DNA of 64,000 nucleotides from a virus. Taxonomy: Duplodnaviria > Heunggongvirae > Uroviricota > Caudoviricetes. This document shows, piece after piece, positions 2,427-34,914 of the stretch (the first letter of the stretch is position 1; each line of letters opens with the position of its first letter). Position numbers and translations under genes: made by a program. Under the pieces are notes generated by a model. The model worked only from the letters and a program-made list of their open reading frames with translations, was not told the DNA's origin and made no database searches. The stretch lies in IMG/VR virus record IMGVR_UViG_3300046533_001163; one strand, 5' to 3'.

Positions 2427-4059
2427 ATGGCTACAAAAATCAATCCAAAAATCACCAAGACCGTACCGACAACAAAACAGAAGTCTAAATCTCTTGTTCT
2501 ATACGCTGCTGATTTATAAAATGAATACGCTGCACCGAATAAGCATTTAATAAGAACTAGAAATGACATAGCAAATTCCTTTAGTTGTTTGGCATAGCGA
2601 CAAACAATTTTGCAAGTCCATCCATAAAAGTTTCGGTATACCTAGTAATATCCTCAGGAATACCTGCAAGAAGGCAATCTGTCTGGTGGTCTTGTGTATG
2701 ATAGTTGGTAAGTGCTTGATTAATAAAAGCATTGTGCTGCGCGAGAAGACGATTCACAATTTCAAGCTTTTGTTCAGTACTCATTTTTCACCACTTTAGG
2801 GAAATTTCTTTAACTTGAACCGTCTCAAGCCGGATGTCTTCAGTCGCGGTTGTTGCCAGTAAGGGATCAAGCAACAAATCATCGGCATCTTCTTTTTCGT
2901 CTAATCCGTAAGTTATCGGATTATTAACGCAGTGAAGGGGTTGCCATCCACTAGAAGTCCACACAACATTTTCTTGACTGTGCCCGGCGTCGGCAACAAT
3001 TATTAGTCTTTTTATTTGTGGCATTAGAACAAATCCTTCCAGCGAACATGGCGATTATGGTGCGTCATCATATGGCGGTCAAAACCGCTCACAAAAGAAA
3101 TTGCGAACATCGTTAGTCCTATAAAACAAATTCCTTGAATACCCATTAAGATCAGCATTTTTATTCCTTAAACGGCTACAGGCTCTTCGGAGGATTCTTC
3201 ATCTTCGCAGATAATACCATGGCAGGTTCCATCAGAAAAAAGTAAGAACAAACAGGACTGGTAACCAATTCCATCCGTGTAGATGGTAGTGCTTACAACA
3301 GCCTGAATGTTTTTTCCTACTGTCCTTGCCAACTTAATCTGCCTGTACTTCGGCAATTCCATTTTGCCAGAAACCAACTTCAGATCAGAGGAATTAATCT
3401 TATTCCCCTTGGCGTCTACGATGACGACAAGTTTCTTTTCTGGATTTGGCGTAATCCAAGTAGATTTATCCCAGCCCATCATTTGCTTTCGTTCTTAGAT
3501 CTTTTTTCGTACCACGAAACGACGCGAGGATCAACCCACTCAACCTTCTTCCGCAACTGCTTCAATGCATCCTTAGCTGTAATCTCGCCAAGTCGCACAG
3601 CAGAACGAAAGCCAGTAGACTTGGCCTTCGGCGCTTCCTTCACCACTTCGGTAACGGGTTCAGCAGTAGTAACAACGTCAGACTTTTTTGCTTTTCGGGG
3701 CATTGTATGCTTTCAGGTGGTCAGATGGAACTCGTATCGAGACAAATTTTGCTTTTTTTCTAAATTCTACAAGACTCCAAGAAATACCTTTTCTCCATTC
3801 CTGCCTCATAACCACACCGTTCATTCCCCATAGTGATGGGTACTGAAGTGCTACTTTTACCTTAACCCCTTTGCCTATCATAAACGGATGTTGCGGAAGA
3901 GCATTAACGACCTTTTGAAACTCTCCGTTTTTCACACAAGAAACACAACCGAATAATGGTCTACTACGCTTGTCTGGTCTATTGTCGCGTTTAAACGCAA
4001 CTGCTGCATTTTTCGCTAAAACTCTTTCGCCACATGATGCACACTTTGCCATATAACCC

Positions 4060-5527: not shown

Positions 5528-5958
5528 TTTGGGGTCTGGTTCTCTAACCCACTCTATGGCTATTCGTCCTCACAGAGAATTTCACCATCCATAATTTCTA
5601 TTTTTTCGTTACAAAAACAACATTCGCAAGTATACAAAACAGATACATTGTTTTCATAAATTGATATCTTATTTAATGTCCCACCATTATGCGGGCATTT
5701 ATGAGACTTAAGCCAACCTCGTATCATGTCCTGCTCTTTTTCAGGAAATAAATTATTGGTGCTCATTCGGCACTTCCAGTTAGAATAGAGAAGTCTTTAG
5801 GCAGATTAAATTCTTCTGCCGTATCTTTGCTTGGCGATGTTATGCCGGAAATGTTAACGAGTAATCCATGATCGGCAAACGCGCTAGGAAGCACGTAGAG
5901 AATCGCCGGACCATCCAGATTAGCATCTGGAATCGCATTGGCCGCGTCCCGCAGTTGC

Positions 5959-6564
5959 CTAAGAGTGATATTTTTTAACATATATCGCGGCCTTAATATG
6001 TGCTCGCTGTAGTTCAGTTAATTGATGCTGCGTATCAAGAATGGCCTGTAAATGATCTATATCACAGTCCACCAATCGCTTCCATCGGAAGTGCTCTTTG
6101 CCGCTCTTTCCGTAGGTTCCCCACAATTTAAACCCATTTTCATCTACGTAAAATCCATCTACAACACGAAAAGGTTGCGCGGAATCATCTTCCTCTATTT
6201 CTTTAACTGGCGACTCTATTTTCACGCTAAGATGTTCAGGAAGTTCTGGAAACTTAATTGGTTGCCAGCAAATAACCGATCCATCTGGAAACGAACCCCA
6301 TGACGACGAACGCCAGTGCATATTTTCATAACGTCCTTTACGAACATATGGTAAGTCTACATTTTCCGTATTGTGTTTAACAACTATAAAGCACTCTTCT
6401 TTATTGTCTGGCAATTCATCCTTGCAATAAATCCAGTCATCATTGCTAATTTCTGGAATATCCACTTTTACTTTAGGAGTATCGGCATTATTAGCCTTGC
6501 AGCCCCCAATAAATGGAAGCAGACCAGCCAACGGAAGCGATGATAGAAAATTTCTGCGTTTCAT
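5959..6564 (-). CDS. Tat-leader protein with DUF551-like domain and a C-terminal phage domain
   Basis: MKRRNFLSSLPLAGLLPF twin-arginine leader; DWIYCKDELPD...WQPIKFPELP resembles DUF551. Confidence 0.55.
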   Translation of the reverse strand: MKRRNFLSSLPLAGLLPFIGGCKANNADTPKVKVDIPEISNDDWIYCKDELPDNKEECFIVVKHNTENVDLPYVRKGRYENMHWRSSSWGSFPDGSVICWQPIKFPELPEHLSVKIESPVKEIEEDDSAQPFRVVDGFYVDENGFKLWGTYGKSGKEHFRWKRLVDCDIDHLQAILDTQHQLTELQRAHIKAAIYVKKYHS

Positions 6565-18706: not shown

Positions 18707-20338
18707 ATCCCCTTCATTAACAGGCTGGCGTCTTCGCCGCGCTCCATTAATTCTTGTCTTACCCCGTTGCGAAATTTAACTCTGGATGGGATTTTAGATT
18801 TGATTGGGTATATGGCGGATAGGTAGCCGACAAGTTCATCGGTATCGGTTCTTGATATATCAATGTCTGATATGAAATGGTCTAAAGATTCCATGTCATT
18901 GCTTTTTATAAAACCGGCAACAAAATTAATAATCTTGCTCGTTTTAGGACTAACTGCTTTTTTAATGCGTATAAGACTTACACACTGTACAAAGCCTCTA
19001 ATAATTAAAAAGGAAATAGTTAAGATAAACGTAATGGCACTAGTAATTTCCCATGACTTTGTCCATTTATTCAGCGCTAATATCAGTACGCAAATAAATG
19101 TTATTAGTACGATCAGATCATCAATCTTGATCTTTTTCATTCTTTTCTTTGATAAATATAGTTTTTATGCGGATCATATTCCCCGATAACATCATCCCAG
19201 TTGTATTTCCAGAACTGAGCGGCCATAACCATAATGTTTAACTTGGCGTATCCTAATAATGCATAATTAAGATAATTCGTGGTGTTATCTTTTTCCATCA
19301 GATTAAGAATATATCCACTAGCCATCCAAAATCGGTGAAGAATAAAATAAACACTAAGAATGATTAAAAATACCATTTCATTGTCCCAGGTAAAGTTCAG
19401 AGGATGGAAAGTAATTCTTAGCGACAGCAAATAAAATCACTATCGCAATAACAATTAAAACTGCCGGGAAAAGGCAGCAAGACAAATCAGACAGGATAGA
19501 TTTAATAAGTTTCATTTGAATTTTTTACTTCCAGTTTAAAAGAACTCAGCCACATTGGCTCAGATGCAAATTTAAGATAACAAAAATAAAGCAAACACAA
19601 AACTTTAAAATTAGAACTATAAAGTATCTGGGTGCTTCCTTTTATTGGTGCCCATCCTAGATATTCGGCTGTTACAGAATACATTAGTCTTTATACATGC
19701 CTGTTTTTAGATACGTGTGAGTCGGAATATTAGAATCAACCAAAGTATACATCGTCGGTGGATTACCTTGAAATTCCCCTACTTTGGCCGCATCCCATAA
19801 AAGAGACGATGTATCACCGCCAGAGATTTTAACATCAAATTTAATGTCGTTTTTCTTGATCAACTCAGTCTTACATCCATGTTTTGCGCATAGCTTCACA
19901 AATTCATTCAAGGCATCTTGTAAGGGCATATTATAACGACCGACCTCAATTGGGTCGGAATTGTGGTGATTGTATGTGTATACTGAAATCATTTAATTAT
20001 ACCATTTATTCCTTGATCGTGACCTGATTGCCGGTAAACGAAAGGTTAAGGTCTGTAGGAGATTGACCATTTGGATTATAGTGTAATCGCCACGTAAAAT
20101 CATTTTGTAAATTTGGTTTGTCAAAAAGTTGCTGTGAGCTAAGCTGACCTATCGCATTAATAATATTTAATTTAAAATCCCTTGCTCTATTGGTAGGATC
20201 ATCAAAGTAAAAAACTACGCTATCAGCATATCTGGCAACTTGCGTAACATGAATATTATGAACCCTGCACAATTCCCCGAATAATTGTTCGGCATGACTT
20301 AAGTTAGCGCTCATCTTTATCTTTCTTAATGAGAAAAT

Positions 20339-20632
20339 CTATTTCAATAAGTTTTGAGGAATTTCCATATCAAAACTAAATTGTTCCACTAGCAGTCCTT
20401 TGTCAAATGCTAGCGCAAATCGGGCTGCTGTACCTGGTAGAGAAAGACAAGCTAAAGTACGACCATCAACATCGTCAACTAAGATAGTGGCTACAGCAAC
20501 CAAAACATGCAAGTTTGGTTTTAGAATACTATTAAGCGCTAATGCGATAGGACACTTATCACACTTTTTTTGCTCACCATTGCTGATATGCTCATGAGAA
20601 ACCTTGACATTTGTCATTTTGATAGAACTCAT
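20339..20632 (-). CDS. Hypothetical protein, paralog of 33567-33833
   Basis: EHISNG...CPIALAL resembles KHIAKG...CPTALAI. Confidence 0.55.
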   Translation of the reverse strand: MSSIKMTNVKVSHEHISNGEQKKCDKCPIALALNSILKPNLHVLVAVATILVDDVDGRTLACLSLPGTAARFALAFDKGLLVEQFSFDMEIPQNLLK

Positions 20633-20658
20633 TTTTAATCTTTCTAAAATTTAAGACC

Positions 20659-20705
20659 TAGATGCATCTGCTCAGAAAGGAGGTTTGGATTGCTGTAAGC
20701 ATCTA
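20659..20705 (-). ncRNA. CAGCAA-loop hairpin element, copy 1
   Basis: TAGATGC-TTACAGCAATCCAAACCTCCTTTCTGAGCAGAT-GCATCTA; 7-bp stem; intergenic. Confidence 0.65.
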
Positions 20706-20713
20706 TTGTTTCG

Positions 20714-20896
20714 TTAGTTAGCCATCTGAATGATGGCTTCTCTTAATTCTTTTGCCCTAAGATTAGCTAAATCTCTATCTTCGGCACAAGAACAATCATT
20801 TCCCATATCTCTTAGTAATTCTATTACATCATCTGACCTGATGTATGCAGAACCACCAATTTCACGCATTCTAAATGTCCAATTGACTAATGGCAT
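20714..20896 (-). CDS. Small hypothetical protein between DUF2828 and hairpin copy 1
   Basis: 60 aa with SD AAGGA. Confidence 0.5.
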   Translation of the reverse strand: MPLVNWTFRMREIGGSAYIRSDDVIELLRDMGNDCSCAEDRDLANLRAKELREAIIQMAN

Positions 20897-20908
20897 GATT
20901 CTTTTCCT

Positions 20909-22378
20909 TTACGCCGAAATTTCGGCGTACCTTTCATTGTTAAGAACTTCCAGCATAGACTCATACGGAGTCACGGAAATTCCGCCAAGCAAATACTTCA
21001 AAATGACTGGCGAACAGCCGCTCACAAGATAAGTTCCACGCTCGTCCTTCTTCACCGGAACGCCCTTCTCCGGAGTTGCATTCACGTTCCAGAAAACAAG
21101 CTTCGGCATTTCATAACCGCTTTGCTCGTACTTCTGCTTAATAACTTCAAAATTAGTTTTATCATTATCTCTGCATGCAACATCAAACTGCATGTCGGAA
21201 ATAATGTAAAGCACATTCGGCATTTGATGCAAAGGAACATTATTCTCCACCGCAGTAGAGAGAACCACATCAAACACCGCTTGCAGGTTAGTGTTCTGAT
21301 TCCAGTCAGCACGACGCAAGTTAGCGTCCTTTTCCTTCAACGTCTTGCCCTTCAACTTCTGCAAAGACGGTCGGTTAGAAAAAGTAATGAAAGCATCCTT
21401 GAATGCACCCTGATTGCGCTCCGCAAAGTAGATTGCCAGTGAAGTGCAAACATCCAAAGGATTTCCGTTCATGCTACCGCTAACGTCAGCGATAACAAGA
21501 CCATTATGCGGATTATCCTTAAGATAATCAGGAAGCGCCTTCCACTGCAACTCTAAGGACCGAGCCTGTTGCTCATCGGAATATCTAATGGCCTTTATAA
21601 TATCATAAGGATAAAGAGTTCCTGCCTTAATTTCAGCTTCGCCCTTTTCCACTTTTTCCAAGTATTCGGTATATCTCTCACCGTCATGCTTATGAAATGC
21701 CGTTCGGTAAATCATGCTTGCACGACTAGGAACACGCTCATAGTTAATGGCGTCCCATTTTCCTGCACACATATTCTTCTCAACAATATTAATGCGGGTT
21801 CGCAGACCAACCAGCATCTTGCGGTATTCCTTCGCAGAATATCCAAGGCGATTTGACAGGAAATTCGCCAGTTGAACCGTCTTTTTGCTGCTGGTGTTGT
21901 TGGACGGCATCCACTTACCAAGCAACGAAACTTCTCCGCTGCTGGAAAGGTCGGCATTCAACTGCTTAGAAATAAATTCAAGTACCGCCTGTTCACATGG
22001 CGTACCAATCAAACAAAACAAGTCATCCCATCGTCCGAAATGAGGAATGTGCTTGATGTTTTTAAGAACAGCTTCCTTATGATTATTAGCAAGGAACGTC
22101 AAAAGACGACGAACTACATCGCGTTCGCCTTGCCCACCACGAATATCGCGGAAGTGAAGCAGACATCGCAATGCTAGAGTATTGTCCTCTGAAAATGCTC
22201 TACCGAACAGATGTTCAACACTTTCCCAATTACCTTTTAGGGAAGAACGACAAGCCGCACCCATCGCATAGAAGTCTAGCAAATCAGACTTCGTAGACTT
22301 GAGCGTCTTGGCTCCGTTCGCAGTTTCAGTGGTATTGAGGCTATCCTCAAGGTTATTTACGAATGTATTTTCGTCCAT
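20909..22378 (-). CDS. DUF2828-family protein (TROVE/Ro60-like helical domain + C-terminal vWA)
   Basis: T.T.NGA, SDLLDFY, RDIRGGQGER, GRWDDL, GKWMPS, VPSRAS, AGTLYPYDI, vWA MIDAS DVSGSM, ISDMQFD, LVFWNV, VSG.SP. Confidence 0.88.
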   Translation of the reverse strand: MDENTFVNNLEDSLNTTETANGAKTLKSTKSDLLDFYAMGAACRSSLKGNWESVEHLFGRAFSEDNTLALRCLLHFRDIRGGQGERDVVRRLLTFLANNHKEAVLKNIKHIPHFGRWDDLFCLIGTPCEQAVLEFISKQLNADLSSSGEVSLLGKWMPSNNTSSKKTVQLANFLSNRLGYSAKEYRKMLVGLRTRINIVEKNMCAGKWDAINYERVPSRASMIYRTAFHKHDGERYTEYLEKVEKGEAEIKAGTLYPYDIIKAIRYSDEQQARSLELQWKALPDYLKDNPHNGLVIADVSGSMNGNPLDVCTSLAIYFAERNQGAFKDAFITFSNRPSLQKLKGKTLKEKDANLRRADWNQNTNLQAVFDVVLSTAVENNVPLHQMPNVLYIISDMQFDVACRDNDKTNFEVIKQKYEQSGYEMPKLVFWNVNATPEKGVPVKKDERGTYLVSGCSPVILKYLLGGISVTPYESMLEVLNNERYAEISA

Positions 22379-22411
22379 CGTATGCCCTTTCTATGTTTTG
22401 AGATTTTGTAA

Positions 22412-22424
22412 TATGGGTAACTAA
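22412..22424 (-). promoter_or_regulatory. TTAGTTACCCATA motif variant upstream of DUF2828
   Basis: 12/13 match overlapping the upstream stop, 33 nt before the DUF2828 ATG. Confidence 0.7.
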
Positions 22425-22819
22425 GAATGATGAAGGTTGTTAAATTCTTCTTCGGTAATGTGCCTTGTAACTGGATAGGCGTTTACGTAAAGTGGTTGCC
22501 CAAGAAAATTTTGGTAGTAAGATTTATACCCTATGCCATTATAATACCATCGTTGAACACCGCCACACGCAGAAGAATAAATAGCAGGCAAATCATCATC
22601 ACAATGAATTTGGCCTTCTTTGTTAAAATAAGTCTTTTCCACCGAGCATTTTTGCCAAACTACAATTCCATCACGAACGCAATAAGTCATTTCCCCTCTT
22701 TTAAACTTAATAAACTTAGATTTCTTGGCAAGAATCTCTGGCTTACTTTCCGCCTTTGCAAATGGCAAGAAAGAAAGCAATCCAGCAGGAATGAATGCAA
22801 GGAAATTACGTCGCAGCAT
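22421..22819 (-). CDS. Tat-leader HRxDGPA-repeat family protein (single degenerate repeat)
   Basis: MLRRNFLAFIPAGLLSFLPFAKA leader; HCDDDLPAIY...RWYYNG. Confidence 0.65.
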   Translation of the reverse strand: MLRRNFLAFIPAGLLSFLPFAKAESKPEILAKKSKFIKFKRGEMTYCVRDGIVVWQKCSVEKTYFNKEGQIHCDDDLPAIYSSACGGVQRWYYNGIGYKSYYQNFLGQPLYVNAYPVTRHITEEEFNNLHHS

Positions 22820-22841
22820 TTGATTGTTCCTGAAAATTAAC

Positions 22842-22883
22842 GAGATTCATTTTTGCGTAAAGCTTTGTTGCTGTTAGAATCTC
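22842..22883 (-). ncRNA. CAGCAA-loop hairpin element, copy 2
   Basis: GAGATTC-TAACAGCAACAAAGCTTTACGCAAAAAT-GAATCTC; perfect 7-bp stem with compensatory changes; starts 3 nt after the tRNA. Confidence 0.6.
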
Positions 22884-22886
22884 AAA

Positions 22887-22961
22887 TGGCTGTGGTCAGA
22901 TTTGAACTGACGATCTCAAGGTTATGGGCCTCGCGGGGACTCCAGGCTCCCCCACACAGCG
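22887..22961 (-). tRNA. tRNA-Met(CAT), initiator-like, CCA not encoded
   Basis: Full cloverleaf: acceptor G2-G7/C66-C71 with C1xC72 mismatch, D-stem GGGG/CCCC, anticodon stem CGAGG/CCTTG with loop CCCATAA, T-arm GTCAG-TTCAAAT-CTGAC, A73. Confidence 0.88.
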
Positions 22962-22997
22962 GCATGCTTACTTTTTTTCTAAAAAGTAAGAAAAATC

Positions 22998-23046
22998 AAG
23001 ATGCATCTTCTTCACCAATGGAATTTTGGATTGCTGCAAGCACCTT
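22998..23046 (-). ncRNA. CAGCAA-loop hairpin element, copy 3
   Basis: AAGGTGC-TTGCAGCAATCCAAAATTCCATTGGTGAAGAAGAT-GCATCTT; 7-bp stem with one G.U. Confidence 0.65.
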
Positions 23047-23087
23047 TGTGAACACATATATAGCAAAAAAGTAGAAAAAAGTCAAGA

Positions 23088-23660
23088 CTAAATCGGCGGT
23101 CCAGAATTAGCGTAATAGTAACTCAAAGCCGCTTGGTAAGTAGTGCTCGCATCTTGATAGCGGGCCTGAGCCGTATCATAATCTGGTACAGCGGTGACGG
23201 TCCATAGGTCGGTGGCATTGTTAAAGTAAATTACTGCATCAGCATACTGAGGAGTATTCGGATACTGCGGAAACCACAGTCCATTACCGGCAATATAATT
23301 TCCATCGCCACGTAATTTATAATACTCTCCGAGATCCCAAAAAGTATCTCCGGTTTGAAAATATCCGTTGCCACTAGCGATTAAGTTATTATAAGTAGCC
23401 TTCATATCATCCGACCATCTAGTCGGGGCCGATGGCAATGCTGCCTTATCATTCAAGGCGTCTTGCCAGGCATAACCAGCCTCGCCTCTCGCTGCTGCAA
23501 CTGCCATTGATGCATTATTTGCAGCAGACAATGCCTGAGTTTGGGCTGTGGTCGGTTGATTCGGTTGCCCGCCACCCGGAGGACCGCCGCCATACTGAGC
23601 AAATGCGCTTGTCTGAGCCAACATCAAAACAACAAACGCCATCAGTTTTGTTTTCATCAT
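23088..23660 (-). CDS. Secreted Ala/Tyr/Gly-rich helical protein, paralog 1 (start re-called at 23660)
   Basis: Sec-type signal MMKTKLMAFVVLMLAQTSAFA, SD AAGGA; the track's longer start runs through hairpin copy 4. Confidence 0.65.
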   Translation of the reverse strand: MMKTKLMAFVVLMLAQTSAFAQYGGGPPGGGQPNQPTTAQTQALSAANNASMAVAAARGEAGYAWQDALNDKAALPSAPTRWSDDMKATYNNLIASGNGYFQTGDTFWDLGEYYKLRGDGNYIAGNGLWFPQYPNTPQYADAVIYFNNATDLWTVTAVPDYDTAQARYQDASTTYQAALSYYYANSGPPI

Positions 23661-23686
23661 TTTCCTTCTCAGGTTAGAATTTAAAA

Positions 23687-23755
23687 TAAAAAACAAAAGA
23701 CGCATCCTCTTCGCCAATGGAATTTTGGATTGCTGTAAGCATCTTTTGTTTTTTA
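23687..23755 (-). ncRNA. CAGCAA-loop hairpin element, copy 4
   Basis: TAAAAAACAAAAGATGC-TTACAGCAATCCAAAATTCCATTGGCGAAGAGGAT-GCGTCTTTTGTTTTTTA; 17-bp stem with one U.G. Confidence 0.7.
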
Positions 23756-23780
23756 GAAAATCATTTCAAATCTACGGCGA

Positions 23781-24302
23781 TTAGTTATAGCTATAAAAGT
23801 ACCAAGCGTACCAGTATGCCATATATGCGCTGGTATAATTGCCTTTAGCTGCTTGCCAGTAGCTTTTAGCATTATTGGTATTATTAACGAAATACCCACT
23901 GGCCAAATTAGCGTCCGCTTTACACGCCGCCCAAAGCTGGAAGTTATACTCGCTAACGGCTTGGTTGTACCAAGTAAGACCTGAATCGTACTCCGTTCCT
24001 GCATCTACATCATTAAAAACGCCGTCTACAACCAGAGAATCTCCCGTAGCGATATACCCGTTATAGGCATCAATTTGCCACTGCTGCCAACCACTTTTAA
24101 TTCCCGGAAGACCAGCCTTAAATTCGGTAGCTGCTGTGGCTTCGGCGGCGGAATCAGCCTCGGCCGTTTCGGCTTGTCCCTTCAAAATTTCAGCGGTAGT
24201 TTTTGCAACACCAGCATCGTACTGGTCATCCGCTACTACATAACTACACATTCCCAACGCCAAGACTAACGTTGCCAAAACTCCAGCCATTTTGTTCATC
24301 AT
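23781..24302 (-). CDS. Secreted Ala/Tyr/Gly-rich helical protein, paralog 2 (start re-called at 24302)
   Basis: Signal MMNKMAGVLATLVLALGMCSYVVA, SD AAGGAG; W...YN..IA.G...GD pattern shared with paralog 1. Confidence 0.65.
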   Translation of the reverse strand: MMNKMAGVLATLVLALGMCSYVVADDQYDAGVAKTTAEILKGQAETAEADSAAEATAATEFKAGLPGIKSGWQQWQIDAYNGYIATGDSLVVDGVFNDVDAGTEYDSGLTWYNQAVSEYNFQLWAACKADANLASGYFVNNTNNAKSYWQAAKGNYTSAYMAYWYAWYFYSYN

Positions 24303-24691
24303 CTCAATTCTCCTTGTGAAGTGGGTAAAATTTACGACCGTTTTTATAACAAAAAAGTAATCGGCTGTCAATAAGTCTAGGCAGATTTCTTGGCAGGACT
24401 TGAATCGTGCCATTTTATGATGGCTTTGACAGCAGCATTAATCATATCTTTTTTACTACTAAAATCTTTTTCCCAAAACATTCCGATGAAAAGTTTCCCG
24501 GGGGAATTCTTTTGAATTACATAGGCATTAAACGGGTTGACATCTGCTTTGAGCGATTCATGCTCAATGCTACCGATCAAAACGCTGTCGCGGTAAACCT
24601 GTTCAATATAAGATGTGCCTTCTTGCGTCCCTTGAACATTAACGGCTGGCATGGCGTTTTCCTTTGAGGAAAGATGGTTTTCTAACTCGCT

Positions 24692-26847: not shown

Positions 26848-27234
26848 TCATTTCATCTCCTTCAGTTTTTCTGCTGCCGCTTGATCAAATGAATAATAAT
26901 TACAAGTTAATTCTTCTCCTGCCTTGATATCTCTTGCAGCAATTCCTAGTATGGAATCAAACGAATAAAGAATATTAGGATCATCTGAATGATTGCAGAA
27001 CTTATCATTATCTCCCGGAAGATAATAAACGTCATCATGTAAAAATGCATATGCTCTTACATGATCCGAAGCCGCAGGCGGGACAAACTCCGTATCCAAC
27101 TCAATTTTAGGAATCATATTATCAAACTTAGTATCTAATTTAGATACAACTGTATCCTTAGGAATATCATGAACCGCAAACAATCCAAGTCCATGAATTT
27201 TGGATGCGGCTATATGCGTATCAACTAACAGCAT
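26848..27234 (-). CDS. SET-domain protein (putative lysine methyltransferase)
   Basis: SKIHGLGLFA..DI; FCNHSDDPN; AARDIKAGEELTCNY. Confidence 0.88.
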   Translation of the reverse strand: MLLVDTHIAASKIHGLGLFAVHDIPKDTVVSKLDTKFDNMIPKIELDTEFVPPAASDHVRAYAFLHDDVYYLPGDNDKFCNHSDDPNILYSFDSILGIAARDIKAGEELTCNYYSFDQAAAEKLKEMK

Positions 27235-29064: not shown

Positions 29065-29886
29065 TCAAACCTTATGCACTTTATTTTCGTATAGGTAGTA
29101 TACAGGAACTGGGAACTTCTGTCTAGACAGAAATTGATGAATTTCGTCCAAAGCATACCTGATTGAAATATGGTACAGGAACAAAGCATCAATCCTTTTA
29201 TTTTTAATAACTTCCATTACACCATCAAAAGACGAATGAACATCGTATTTGATATCGTTTTTGTTTAAAAACGTACATTCATGGCAGAAAATACCACCGT
29301 CATACTCACCGTACTTGTCCAACGGAACCGTATCGCCTGAATACGTAAGCAATCCATGCTTGTAATCATTCGTAATCGGCGTTCCAGACTGCTTAAGTCT
29401 AATGATTTCGTCTACAGGAGCACAGCTATATTCTTCCTTTAACTTTCTGCGAACCTCGAATAACTGAAATCCAAGCGTAAGCGCGCCTTCAATATGCCTG
29501 CCTGGGAAACAATATACATATAGGTTTCTTCCTACTTCAACAACCTGATGTGCATCTACGGCAATCCACTCAATCTGGAATTGCGTATTATTGATTTCCT
29601 GCTCAAGATAAACCTTCATCTTAATAACACCCAAACTGCCCTTGGGATAAATAATTCTAAGAGGCTTATTGTTGTGGCCCTTACCAAATTCTCTTGCGTG
29701 AAAGAAACTTGGAAGACCAGATATATGATCTAAGTGACCATGAGACAGCAGAATCGTTTCAACAGCGAAAATGCGTTCTTTAAGATTAAATGCGCACCCT
29801 TCGCCGCAATCAAAGAGGATACGGCTTGGCTGATGAAAAAGCCACGTAGCATAGCCAGCCAATGAGCAACCTTCAAGATTCAGCAT
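29065..29886 (-). CDS. rnz: RNase Z-like metallo-beta-lactamase (tRNA 3' endonuclease, short form)
   Basis: LFDCGEG, LSHGHLDHISG (HxHxDH), YSGDT, HECTF, H, LYHIS.RY. Confidence 0.82.
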   Translation of the reverse strand: MLNLEGCSLAGYATWLFHQPSRILFDCGEGCAFNLKERIFAVETILLSHGHLDHISGLPSFFHAREFGKGHNNKPLRIIYPKGSLGVIKMKVYLEQEINNTQFQIEWIAVDAHQVVEVGRNLYVYCFPGRHIEGALTLGFQLFEVRRKLKEEYSCAPVDEIIRLKQSGTPITNDYKHGLLTYSGDTVPLDKYGEYDGGIFCHECTFLNKNDIKYDVHSSFDGVMEVIKNKRIDALFLYHISIRYALDEIHQFLSRQKFPVPVYYLYENKVHKV

Positions 29887-31004: not shown

Positions 31005-31904
31005 TCATGCGGGGACTTCGCTGGTTTTTCTTTTTAACAAAGCATGAAACAAAAAAGCCGTCCTATTACTAATAGACTTTCTTGCTTCCTTGCTCATAAC
31101 AATTTCGCCTTCGGCCTCCCTGGATACATCTTCCAACATAGCTTTGACTACATCTGCTGTTCCAGAAACCCCTATATCCTGGGGCAGCTTATCAAGCACA
31201 TGACGCAATCTTTCCTCTACTACCCATTCTTCCGCTATAGCTCTTGCGTCATCAAGAACTTGAACATCGGCATCATTTACTTCACGAGGAGTTTTAGTTT
31301 CCATAAACTCTTTGCGCTTATGCTTACAAATAATTCTACCGCCATTATTAAGAGTGCATTCCACGATGGGTCGTAAGACAACTCCCTCTCTGATATGATT
31401 GTCTCCCATGCCATTTTTAATAGCCTGAGTAGACGGCCTATCGCGTTCCGCGTCTATAGCTTCAAGAGTAGCCGGAATCTTCGCATAATCAACAAAATCT
31501 AATCCTAGTTTGCTACAAACATCATGAGCGTTAACAACAGACAGCCAAACTTCATCGTGTTGGCCATCGGCAGTGAAGGAAACCTTAACGTCAAATCCAG
31601 CAAACCTAAGATGCGGCCCATACCAAGCAGACATGCCCATCAGCTTTCCGCCATATGCTTCCCCAAAAACAGTACAGTCTCGGTCGGGAAACATTTCCAA
31701 AAACTTAGCGAGCAAGGTTGGCTGGTCAAATAATTTTAAGAAATTAACATGATTCGCACCACCAGAAGAAAAATGAATTTTCTTTTCAGCGAATTTCCAA
31801 GATAAATGACTCGAAGTCCCGTGAATTTTTTCGAGTGAAAATAATTCCTTAAACATAAGGACGGTTGTGTCCTTATAAAGGTTAGAAATATGCATGAACC
31901 CCAT
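31005..31904 (-). CDS. RNA ligase, Rnl2 family
   Basis: LEKIHGTSS (motif I), VFGEAYG, GFDVKV, REGVVLRP, CKHKRKEF, plus a C-terminal helical domain. Confidence 0.85.
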   Translation of the reverse strand: MGFMHISNLYKDTTVLMFKELFSLEKIHGTSSHLSWKFAEKKIHFSSGGANHVNFLKLFDQPTLLAKFLEMFPDRDCTVFGEAYGGKLMGMSAWYGPHLRFAGFDVKVSFTADGQHDEVWLSVVNAHDVCSKLGLDFVDYAKIPATLEAIDAERDRPSTQAIKNGMGDNHIREGVVLRPIVECTLNNGGRIICKHKRKEFMETKTPREVNDADVQVLDDARAIAEEWVVEERLRHVLDKLPQDIGVSGTADVVKAMLEDVSREAEGEIVMSKEARKSISNRTAFLFHALLKRKTSEVPA

Positions 31905-34027: not shown

Positions 34028-34396
34028 TTACTCCTTATCTCTCAAGGCTTCTACAAGGCATTTTGCTGTTGCTTGATTAGTGGCGCATGGCAAATTAGAG
34101 ATATCCACGATTCTTAAAAAAGCGCTTACGTCATGTTCGTGAGGCTGAGGCGACATATGGTCCCGGAAAAAAAATACAGCATCTAGCTCTTTACGACTAG
34201 CCATTGCAGCCAAAACAATATCCCCTCCCAATGGACCATGCTCCACTTTTTCACAGCTAATACCATATCGGACTAAAACATCGCCGGTGCTCCTAGTTGC
34301 AATAAGTTGATGCTTTGCAAAAAATGGACTGTGAAACATAACAAATTGCAACAATGCCTCTTTCATTCCATCATGAGCAACAACTGCGATTTTCAT
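34028..34396 (-). CDS. mgsA: Methylglyoxal synthase (start re-called at MKIAVVAHD)
   Basis: IAVVAHD.MK, LIATRSTG, GPLGGD, FFFRD...PHEHDV..FLR..DI.N.PCATN.ATA. Confidence 0.92.
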   Translation of the reverse strand: MKIAVVAHDGMKEALLQFVMFHSPFFAKHQLIATRSTGDVLVRYGISCEKVEHGPLGGDIVLAAMASRKELDAVFFFRDHMSPQPHEHDVSAFLRIVDISNLPCATNQATAKCLVEALRDKE

Positions 34397-34914
34397 ATCC
34401 CTTCTCCGAAATGAATTTGCTGCGCAATTAAATTTTTTCTTCCCTCGTTTCGCAAATCCATCCACATACAACCTACAACATTTTTGCCGAACCATTCACC
34501 ATTAATAAATGCAGCTCCCCAAAACAAGCCTCTTCCACATTTTTGAATATTCTTTACTCTATTTGTACAATCTTCGATAATTATGGAATCGCCGGTTGCT
34601 TCCAGCCATTCATTTAAGTGATGGTGTTGACTTAATTTTAATCTCATCCCTAATTTCATATTCCATAAATCTACAGCGCCCATCGGCTCAACAACCATTT
34701 TGTCCGCATTGCGTTTGGCTACAAACTTAACGGCCATTGGCGAACGCTGTGCAACTATCTCTTTTTTAATATTTTCGTCAGCGAAACGAAGCCACTGAAA
34801 CAAATGCTCATTCGTTCTGAAAGTGATGCCTTCATGAACAATCGGGAAGCCAGACATATTCCCCAACCAACCATTGGGAAGCTTGGATTTCGTAAATGTG
34901 GTGAAGGTTGGCAT
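34393..34914 (-). CDS. NADAR (YbiA-like) ADP-ribosyl/N-glycosidase
   Basis: WLGNM, F.T.EHLFQ..RF, LK..QH, L.ATGD..IIE, FWG, G.N.VG...M.LR. Confidence 0.85.
   Translation of the reverse strand: MPTFTTFTKSKLPNGWLGNMSGFPIVHEGITFRTNEHLFQWLRFADENIKKEIVAQRSPMAVKFVAKRNADKMVVEPMGAVDLWNMKLGMRLKLSQHHHLNEWLEATGDSIIIEDCTNRVKNIQKCGRGLFWGAAFINGEWFGKNVVGCMWMDLRNEGRKNLIAQQIHFGEGI

Follow-up and report, generated by a model that had tools for sequence, protein, structure and literature searches.

The locus considered here lies in a 64,000-nucleotide stretch of DNA, referred to as the window, from a tailed phage (Caudoviricetes; IMG/VR record IMGVR_UViG_3300046533_001163). A gene of the DUF2828 family is surrounded there by four short hairpins, named A to D, that share the hexamer CAGCAA, and the question raised by this arrangement is whether the hairpins are small RNAs belonging to the neighboring protein, as Y RNAs belong to Ro60, or signals serving the transcripts in which they lie. 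We found that they belong to a widespread family of RNAs that is conserved in structure, strand-specific, and associated with the Ro60-like DUF2828 gene. By analogy with Ro60 and its Y RNAs, they are probably (at roughly 0.65) Y-RNA-like partner RNAs of the adjacent protein. The name CAGCAA-handle RNAs is proposed for the family, which is defined by the covariance model R1 described below and is undescribed in Rfam 15 or in searchable papers.

Four hairpins around a DUF2828 gene

The virus record, of which the window is a part, is a complete genome of 511,233 bp with direct terminal repeats. The same sequence is present in several soil and rhizosphere metagenome runs, and four DNA runs carry the identical sequence with zero variants. 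Nearly all genes around the DUF2828 gene, the only one of its family in the whole genome, are on the minus strand. An initial annotation of the window had reported four minus-strand hairpins with a shared layout, each placed 3' of a gene or of a tRNA, and all four were recovered as described (Table 1). They lie on the strand of the DUF2828 gene and at most 1.4 kb from it, in a cluster that spans 3.1 kb and brackets the gene. Each follows a stop codon or, in the case of hairpin C, a tRNA (tRNA-Met, 3 nt away) and precedes the next gene, whose start codon is 20–30 nt downstream.

The common layout consists of a stem of 6–7 bp (17 bp in A), the sequence T-(T/A)-R-CAGCAA, a variable stretch of 20–27 nt, (G/A)AT, and the complementary arm. 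Hairpin A, whose stem extends to 17 bp and is followed by a T-run, also contains an inner hairpin (CCAA/TTGG). Hairpin B is a close paralogue of A, with the stem AAGGUGC/GCAUCUU, which includes one G·U pair and is followed by G. Hairpin D, located 8 nt past the stop codon of a 60-amino-acid open reading frame, has the stem UAGAUGC/GCAUCUA, and C, a divergent copy, combines the stem GAGAUUC/GAAUCUC with the motif UAA-CAGCAA; a G follows the stem in both. In C, pairing is kept by the exchange of both bases of a single pair (G-C to U-A), and in A and B by G·U wobbles. Judged from their sequences, A, B, and D are clearly homologous; the 17-mer GCTTACAGCAATCCAAA, with 0–1 mismatch, is found in these three only, in the window as well as in the 511,233-bp genome. 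An exact scan of IMG/VR with the 17-mer returned 20 matches, all of them chance occurrences inside coding sequence.

A covariance model built from 57 hairpins (R1) found only these four in the window, with scores of 33–38 bits that are partly by construction, as hairpins A–D belonged to its seed. The next best match in the window reached 14.8 bits; in the whole genome the same four hairpins were found, and the next best match reached 20.9 bits. The absence of further copies, which had been noted for the 64 kb, therefore extends to the complete genome. A looser descriptor (6-bp stem, G·U allowed) was dropped as non-specific, as it gave 55 matches genome-wide, similar to control hexamers. Because the folding energies of B (z = 0.76) and D (z = 0.00) are unremarkable, with −1.6 for C, the case for these elements rests on the comparison with other genomes and not on thermodynamics.

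Recurrence of the hairpins with DUF2828 genes

The DUF2828 family is large and mostly viral: a single search scored over 7,000 relatives, and the family is present in 694 records of cultured phages. In a set of 80 viral loci with such a gene, CAGCAA closed by a stem of at least 7 bp was found 188 times on the strand of the gene and 31 times on the opposite strand, while non-overlapping permuted hexamers, used as controls in the same loci, gave approximately 10–36. The positions (n = 197) peak in the 500 nt before the start of the gene (62 hairpins) and in the 500 nt after its end (27), and the arrays hold up to eight copies. At E ≤ 0.1, R1 produced 166 matches in 83 viral loci, every one on the strand of the gene. 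A second set of 80 loci, none of which contributed to the R1 seed, was taken from bacterial and archaeal assemblies that include Clostridia, Treponema, Selenomonas, Planctomycetales, and Gammaproteobacteria; here, 54 loci contained 83 matches, again all on the gene strand (83/83) and mostly just upstream of the gene. The enrichment near DUF2828 genes of other genomes that had been anticipated from the window is thus borne out. The R1 scores of the relatives range from 23 to 54 bits, and the hairpins of the window fall inside this range. As a control, 145 kb of unrelated viral contigs, chosen for containing the 17-mer, gave one weak match. Of the 23 R1 matches in the 905 kb of five whole phage contigs, 20 were within about 11 kb of the DUF2828 gene, with the other three away from it.

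Individual loci illustrate this recurrence. In one relative (L023), AGATGC-ACA-CAGCAA-...-GCATCT immediately precedes the DUF2828 gene, and in another (L025) four copies immediately precede it, with stems of the form AAGAT-NNN/NNN-ATCTT in which NNN covaries. Among cultured phages, the hairpins are present in Bacillus phage Tsamsa, Synechococcus phage B23, Listeria phage P100, the Felix O1-like Escherichia coli phage wV8, and the cluster L mycobacteriophages Faith1 and UPIE. Downstream of the UPIE gene come, in this order, a hairpin, a YrlA-like RNA with the same handle, another hairpin, and a strong terminator.

Many DUF2828 genes sit inside tRNA arrays. Hairpins were nonetheless not a by-product of such arrays, since among 160 loci, 123 with hairpins and 68 with tRNAs, there were 63 that have hairpins and no tRNA within 4 kb. 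Where the two occur together, the spacing resembles that of tRNA genes (0–6 nt from the 3' end of a tRNA to a hairpin, 4–5 nt from a hairpin to a tRNA, and 5–15 nt between hairpins), which fits processing into separate small RNAs. Two further observations concern these arrays. In P100 (L187, positions 2459–3010), a ROOL RNA (RF03087) match that scores 86 bits, less than the gathering score of 99.1, lies among the tRNAs, approximately 1 kb upstream of the two CAGCAA hairpins and the DUF2828 gene that they accompany. In B23 (L191, positions 5866–5975), a 110-nt 'tRNA-Undet' whose anticodon region contains a long insertion lies directly between two CAGCAA/CAGCCA hairpins, CAGCCA replacing CAGCAA in two hairpins of this phage.

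Family structure and covariation

The consensus of 150 matches begins with a lower stem, W-A-G-A-Y, whose G-C pair is conserved in about 95%, and continues with 3–4 covarying pairs, 0–2 nt, and (A)CAGCAA, conserved in 95–100%. More distally come a G-poor tract, a variable apical part, an A-rich stretch, and the 3' arm R-U-C-U-W, directly after which a G is found in 150 of 150 matches. Hairpins B, C, and D of the window carry all these features, and A all except the 3' G. The 150 matches contain 89 distinct stem sequences, with 39 G·U against 16 A·C combinations. In an out-of-sample alignment (A4), the seven stem pairs are paired in 76 of 76 sequences, and the covariation score is 0.628, against 0.248 for shuffled alignments and at most 0.19 for slid partners. 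The initial annotation had remarked that the stems of the window differ in sequence and still pair; across the family the same holds. No family of Rfam 15 matched the simple hairpins, either in the window or in the other loci, and a full-text literature search returned no description of CAGCAA hairpins.

The DUF2828 protein and its predicted fold

The protein matches the Pfam families DUF2828, DUF7788, and, weakly, VWA_2, as well as PHROG 850, described as 'RNA-binding protein' (E = 1.4e-151). The residues of its MIDAS (metal ion-dependent adhesion site; DxSxS, T, D), namely D298, S300, S302, T363, and D395, are invariant in 31 homologues. An AlphaFold2 model built on 31 homologues had a predicted local distance difference test (pLDDT) score of 92.4 and a predicted template modeling (pTM) score of 0.91. 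In a Foldseek comparison of this model with the PDB, the 13 best matches were all Ro60. VIA-align placed it, along its whole length, on Xenopus Ro60 (2i91_A) with Z = 24.3 and a root-mean-square deviation of 3.7 Å over 408 residues; the Ro60 of Thermus phage phiLo (Z = 15–16) and Deinococcus Rsr (Z = 12.5) scored lower, and isolated vWA domains came next (Z of about 10). The Swiss-Prot models matched were those of the TROVE proteins, namely Ro60, TEP1, and Tetrahymena p80. The predicted model thus contains the ring of HEAT-like repeats and the vWA domain with MIDAS that are characteristic of Ro60.

From these structural matches and the invariant MIDAS residues, the protein is predicted to have the Ro60 architecture, though its sequence does not place it in TROVE. 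A distant link in sequence is hinted at by one Atlas cluster, composed of N-terminal fragments of DUF2828, in which 16% of the members carry a TROVE match. Some homologues, from the cluster L mycobacteriophages, are already annotated as 'Ro-like RNA binding protein', and a literature search found no paper on the function of the DUF2828 family.

Table 1. Positions in the window of the hairpins, the DUF2828 gene, and other features. R1 scores of hairpins A–D are partly by construction (seed members).
Feature	Position	Strand	Description and evidence
Hairpin A	23687..23755	-	AAAAGATGC-TTA-CAGCAA-...-GAT-GCGTCTTTT; dG -21.7, z -3.8; R1 33 bits
Hairpin B	22998..23046	-	AGGTGC-TTG-CAGCAA-...-GAT-GCATCT; R1 37 bits
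Hairpin C	22842..22883	-	GAGATTC-TAA-CAGCAA-...-AAT-GAATCTC; R1 38 bits
Hairpin D	20659..20705	-	AGATGC-TTA-CAGCAA-...-GAT-GCATCT; R1 35.8 bits
Predicted Ro60-like protein, 489 aa	20909..22378	-	DUF2828 + DUF7788/vWA; Pfam; phrog_850
tRNA-Met (CAU)	22887..22961	-	no encoded CCA; Rfam tRNA 43.9 bits
RNase Z-like metallo-beta-lactamase (context)	29065..29886	-	TIGR02650, E 6.5e-49, under curated equivalog cut-off
Rnl2-type RNA ligase (context)	31005..31904	-	Pfam RNA_ligase, TIGR02307, phrog_548

Probable partner RNAs and alternative explanations

It is on the family, its structure, its strand and gene linkage, and the predicted Ro60 fold of the protein that we base what we infer about binding, processing, and cellular role. 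As partner RNAs, the four elements would be genes or transcript-embedded modules for small structured RNAs. Their handle, composed of the conserved lower stem, the 3' G, (A)CAGCAA, and the A-rich stretch, would be recognized by the ring protein, leaving the apical part free to vary, from a small hairpin in the window to a tRNA-like module (T-arm, acceptor, and D-arm) in some relatives. The RNAs would be transcribed with their minus-strand neighbors and then cut out of the transcript, probably with the help of tRNA-processing enzymes, as hairpin C lies 3 nt past a tRNA without CCA and an RNase Z-like enzyme is encoded by the phage. In analogy to Ro60 and Y RNA, the particle would gate the ring protein or tether it to other RNA-handling factors during infection, in a setting of RNA quality control, decay, or repair.

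Several observations weigh against such a partnership. Regarding the protein, Pfam TROVE (PF05731) gave no match at E ≤ 0.01 in its sequence or in the whole genome, and neither phmmer nor a DUF2828-family profile reached a Ro60 chain, or any solved structure, in the PDB; of the label 'TROVE-like' in the initial annotation, the fold is thus supported by the model and the family assignment is not. Regarding the RNAs, the handle (CAGCAA plus AGAY/RUCU-G) includes none of the known Ro60-binding motifs, which are GGUCCGA, GNCGAAN0-1G, and CGAA (PMC4201824; PMC12135203), and T-arms and matches to YrlA (RF02553) are absent from all four hairpins of the window. The window hairpins are also separated by protein genes instead of forming a compact array, and hairpin A looks like a terminator and has a T in place of the family-invariant G after the 3' arm. 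About 23% of the DUF2828 loci, including that of Aeromonas phage Aeh1, have no hairpin. Finally, the seed hairpins were picked for having stems, which makes the covariation in two earlier alignments (A2 and A3) partly circular, and model-based alignments lean toward the model; the non-circular evidence consists of the enrichment, the strand bias, and the position.

The main alternatives to partner RNAs are processing signals and cis-regulatory operators. As processing signals, the hairpins would be punctuation or stability elements of polycistronic transcripts, read by RNase E, III, P, or Z, and would not be ligands of the DUF2828 protein. The presence of every window hairpin between two genes, the tight packing with tRNAs in other phages, where many DUF2828 genes are part of tRNA arrays, and the RNase Z-like gene of this phage are all in agreement with this explanation, which we regard as unlikely, since the hairpins track the DUF2828 gene and not tRNAs or gene boundaries. 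This is apparent from the 63 loci that have hairpins and no tRNA, from the whole contigs, where 20 of 23 matches are near the gene, and from the phage itself: of its four dispersed tRNAs only tRNA-Met has a CAGCAA hairpin beside it, and the other three, as well as more than 600 other gene junctions of the genome, are without one. Moreover, the invariance of CAGCAA and of the 3' G indicates that a specific reader exists, one that is itself conserved in hosts ranging from Actinobacteria to Cyanobacteria, and the neighboring DUF2828 protein is the only conserved candidate of this kind.

Cis-acting operators, by means of which the DUF2828 protein or another factor would control the translation or decay of its own and neighboring mRNAs, without free RNAs being formed, are decidedly unlikely. 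They would account for the commonest position of the hairpins, at most 500 nt upstream of the gene and on its own strand, and for the 20–30 nt between the window hairpins and the next start codon. Many copies, however, are downstream of the gene or between tRNAs, in arrays that reach eight, and the tRNA-like modules and the spacing better fit stable processed RNAs. In the cluster L mycobacteriophages, in addition, the three RNAs are flanked by a terminator-like hairpin that belongs to the gene itself and by a strong terminator.

That the elements are ordinary intrinsic terminators or attenuators, a possibility that the initial annotation had named, is very improbable. All four come after a stop codon or a tRNA, and in hairpin A the 17-bp stem is followed by TTTTTTATTTT. 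The G+C-rich stem, loop of 3–8 nt, and U-run of an intrinsic terminator are nevertheless not found together in any of them: a long stem and a T-run are present in A alone, the stems of B, C, and D are of 6–7 bp, modestly stable and without a U-run, and the loops measure 20–35 nt in the window and up to 130 nt in relatives, where no consistent U-run is seen. A terminator scan picked up none of the four (0/4). Conservation of the loop sequence across phyla is no property of terminators, and tandem arrays right upstream of the gene, on its own strand, would block its expression. Hairpin A may double as a terminator, given its 17-bp stem, its T-run, and the T in place of G.

Elements acting at the DNA level (inverted-repeat binding sites, promoters, or mobile-element relics) are equally improbable: the lower stem is a conserved inverted repeat (AGAY...RTCT) and A and B look recently duplicated, but every one of the 249 matches keeps to the strand of the gene, G·U exceeds A·C in the stems (39 vs 16), the arms covary instead of keeping one fixed sequence, and no enriched promoter-like hexamers, flanking target duplications, or transposase genes were found.

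Comparison with known RNA–protein systems

The genes of YrlA RNAs lie no more than 4 kb from Ro60 genes annotated as TROVE and share their strand; the RNAs carry the motif GNCGAAN0-1G near the 5' end, and simpler Y RNAs are also present in each species (Chen et al. 2014, PMC4201824). The Ro60 of phage phiLo binds two upstream RNAs, Yrl1 and Yrl2, which have a CGAA motif (PMC12135203; PDB 9KOP, 9L5Y). The DUF2828 locus resembles these systems in the ring-shaped HEAT-repeat domain and the vWA domain with MIDAS, here taken from a predicted model, and in the several small RNAs encoded within a few kilobases on the gene strand (249 of 249 matches in relatives). The RNAs, in turn, share a terminal stem formed by both ends, a short conserved motif beside the 5' strand, and a distal module that is variable or tRNA-like. 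In contrast, the protein belongs to DUF2828/DUF7788 and not to TROVE, with 11–16% identity to Ro60; most members of the RNA family measure 45–70 nt and have no tRNA-like part, whereas Y RNAs measure 80–130 nt; and CAGCAA arrays reach eight copies. By analogy, the DUF2828 system appears to follow the logic of Ro60/Y RNA, the protein family and the handle being different.

Some of the relatives also have tRNA-like features. A canonical T-arm is contained in 20 of 186 unique hairpins, and several have a T-arm, a capped acceptor stem, and a D-arm in the permuted order typical of YrlA; the tRNA-like module was seen in four loci (L025, L066, L099, and L192). Five hairpins are full-length YrlA matches of 32–50 bits, below threshold, and the L025 copy with the permuted module matches the whole Rfam YrlA model at 43 bits (E of about 1e-6 to 1e-8; gathering score 69). 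The sequence GGCGAAG in the loop of hairpin A (23700–23712, minus strand), located on the 3' side of its inner hairpin, conforms to the YrlA motif GNCGAAN0-1G. Hairpin B, the near-twin of A, reads GGTGAAG at that spot, and the fit in A is probably due to chance.

If the hairpins are RNA partners, they would represent a second, far more widespread Ro/Y-type particle in phages, and many unexplained "spacers" in phage tRNA arrays would be small-RNA genes. The handle is short and well defined and is therefore easy to mutate. As DUF2828 is carried by Felix O1-like, P100/A511-like, Tsamsa-like, and cluster L phages, culturable pairs make Ro-type RNA surveillance during infection testable.

A similar arrangement is found in type III toxin–antitoxin systems (ToxI/ToxN), where tandem structured RNA units also lie beside the gene of their binder, which in the DUF2828 loci is a presumed one. 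The repeats of ToxI are 36-nt units, nearly identical to one another, and are processed by the toxin, an endoribonuclease of the ToxN/Kid fold. The units described here, in contrast, diverge and covary, and the protein has a predicted Ro60 fold.

Among eukaryotic RNAs, a resemblance was noted to the Class I RNAs of dictyostelids. According to Kjellin et al. (2021, PMC7919456), they measure 42–65 nt and have a short covarying stem that joins the ends and, after the 5' arm, an 11-nt motif with near-invariant T, C, C, A, and A at positions 3, 6, 9, 10, and 11. The CAGCAA-handle RNAs are of similar size and likewise have a covarying terminal stem, an unpaired motif right after the 5' arm, and a variable remainder. 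For the positions stated there, to which the comparison is limited, xxTxxCAGCAA fits the motif, hairpins A and D reading GCTTACAGCAA, B GCTTGCAGCAA, and C TCTAACAGCAA. On the other side, Class I RNAs are products of eukaryotic genes, each driven by a DUSE promoter; they begin with a conserved G and end in a CUGU tail where the hairpins have AGAY/RUCU-G, and their known binder is the RRM protein Rnp1A/CIBP. The Class I model (RF01414) gave no match in positions 20300–24000 at E ≤ 5, nor in 22830–23060 at E ≤ 10. The likeness is a resemblance and not evidence of family membership. A tentative and rather unlikely extension is that DUF2828 and the CAGCAA-handle RNAs constitute an ancient ribonucleoprotein, distinct from Ro60/Y RNA and structurally related to it, shared by tailed phages, giant viruses, and eukaryotes, with Class I RNAs as the eukaryotic counterpart and a DUF2828-type protein as their missing partner. 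Such a relationship would supply a specific hypothesis about the abundant but orphan Class I RNAs of these social amoebae.

Genomic context and other features

No close relative of the phage was found in the collections searched: blastn against a phage collection returned only an 84-nt match, and the best protein relative is 55% identical. The tRNA-Met is 36 nt past hairpin B and 3 nt ahead of hairpin C. As it has no encoded CCA, RNase Z-type processing of its 3' end would be needed, and the same cut would create the 5' end of hairpin C; the RNase Z-like enzyme is a possible processor of both the tRNA and the adjoining hairpin. The gene for the Rnl2-type ligase, on the same strand and approximately 9 kb upstream of the gene for the predicted Ro60-like protein, suggests a possible RNA-repair context. 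Between hairpin B and tRNA-Met there is also a perfect 10-bp A/T-rich stem (22967–22990, minus strand; CTTACTTTTT/AAAAAGTAAG, loop AGAA).

Two W/Y/A-rich proteins of 190–210 amino acids (23088–23660 and 23781–24413, both on the minus strand) are encoded between the hairpins and match no family. An N-terminus resembling a signal peptide is present in at least that of 23088–23660, and the similarity between the two is marginal (E = 0.014). Tandem gene duplication as the source of hairpins A and B is unsupported, as the proteins upstream of them are barely similar at this E-value, though the loops of A and B are near-identical. Also on the minus strand, a SET-domain protein (26848–27234, E = 7.7e-13) and a NADAR-domain protein (34393–34914, E = 2.3e-13) are encoded.

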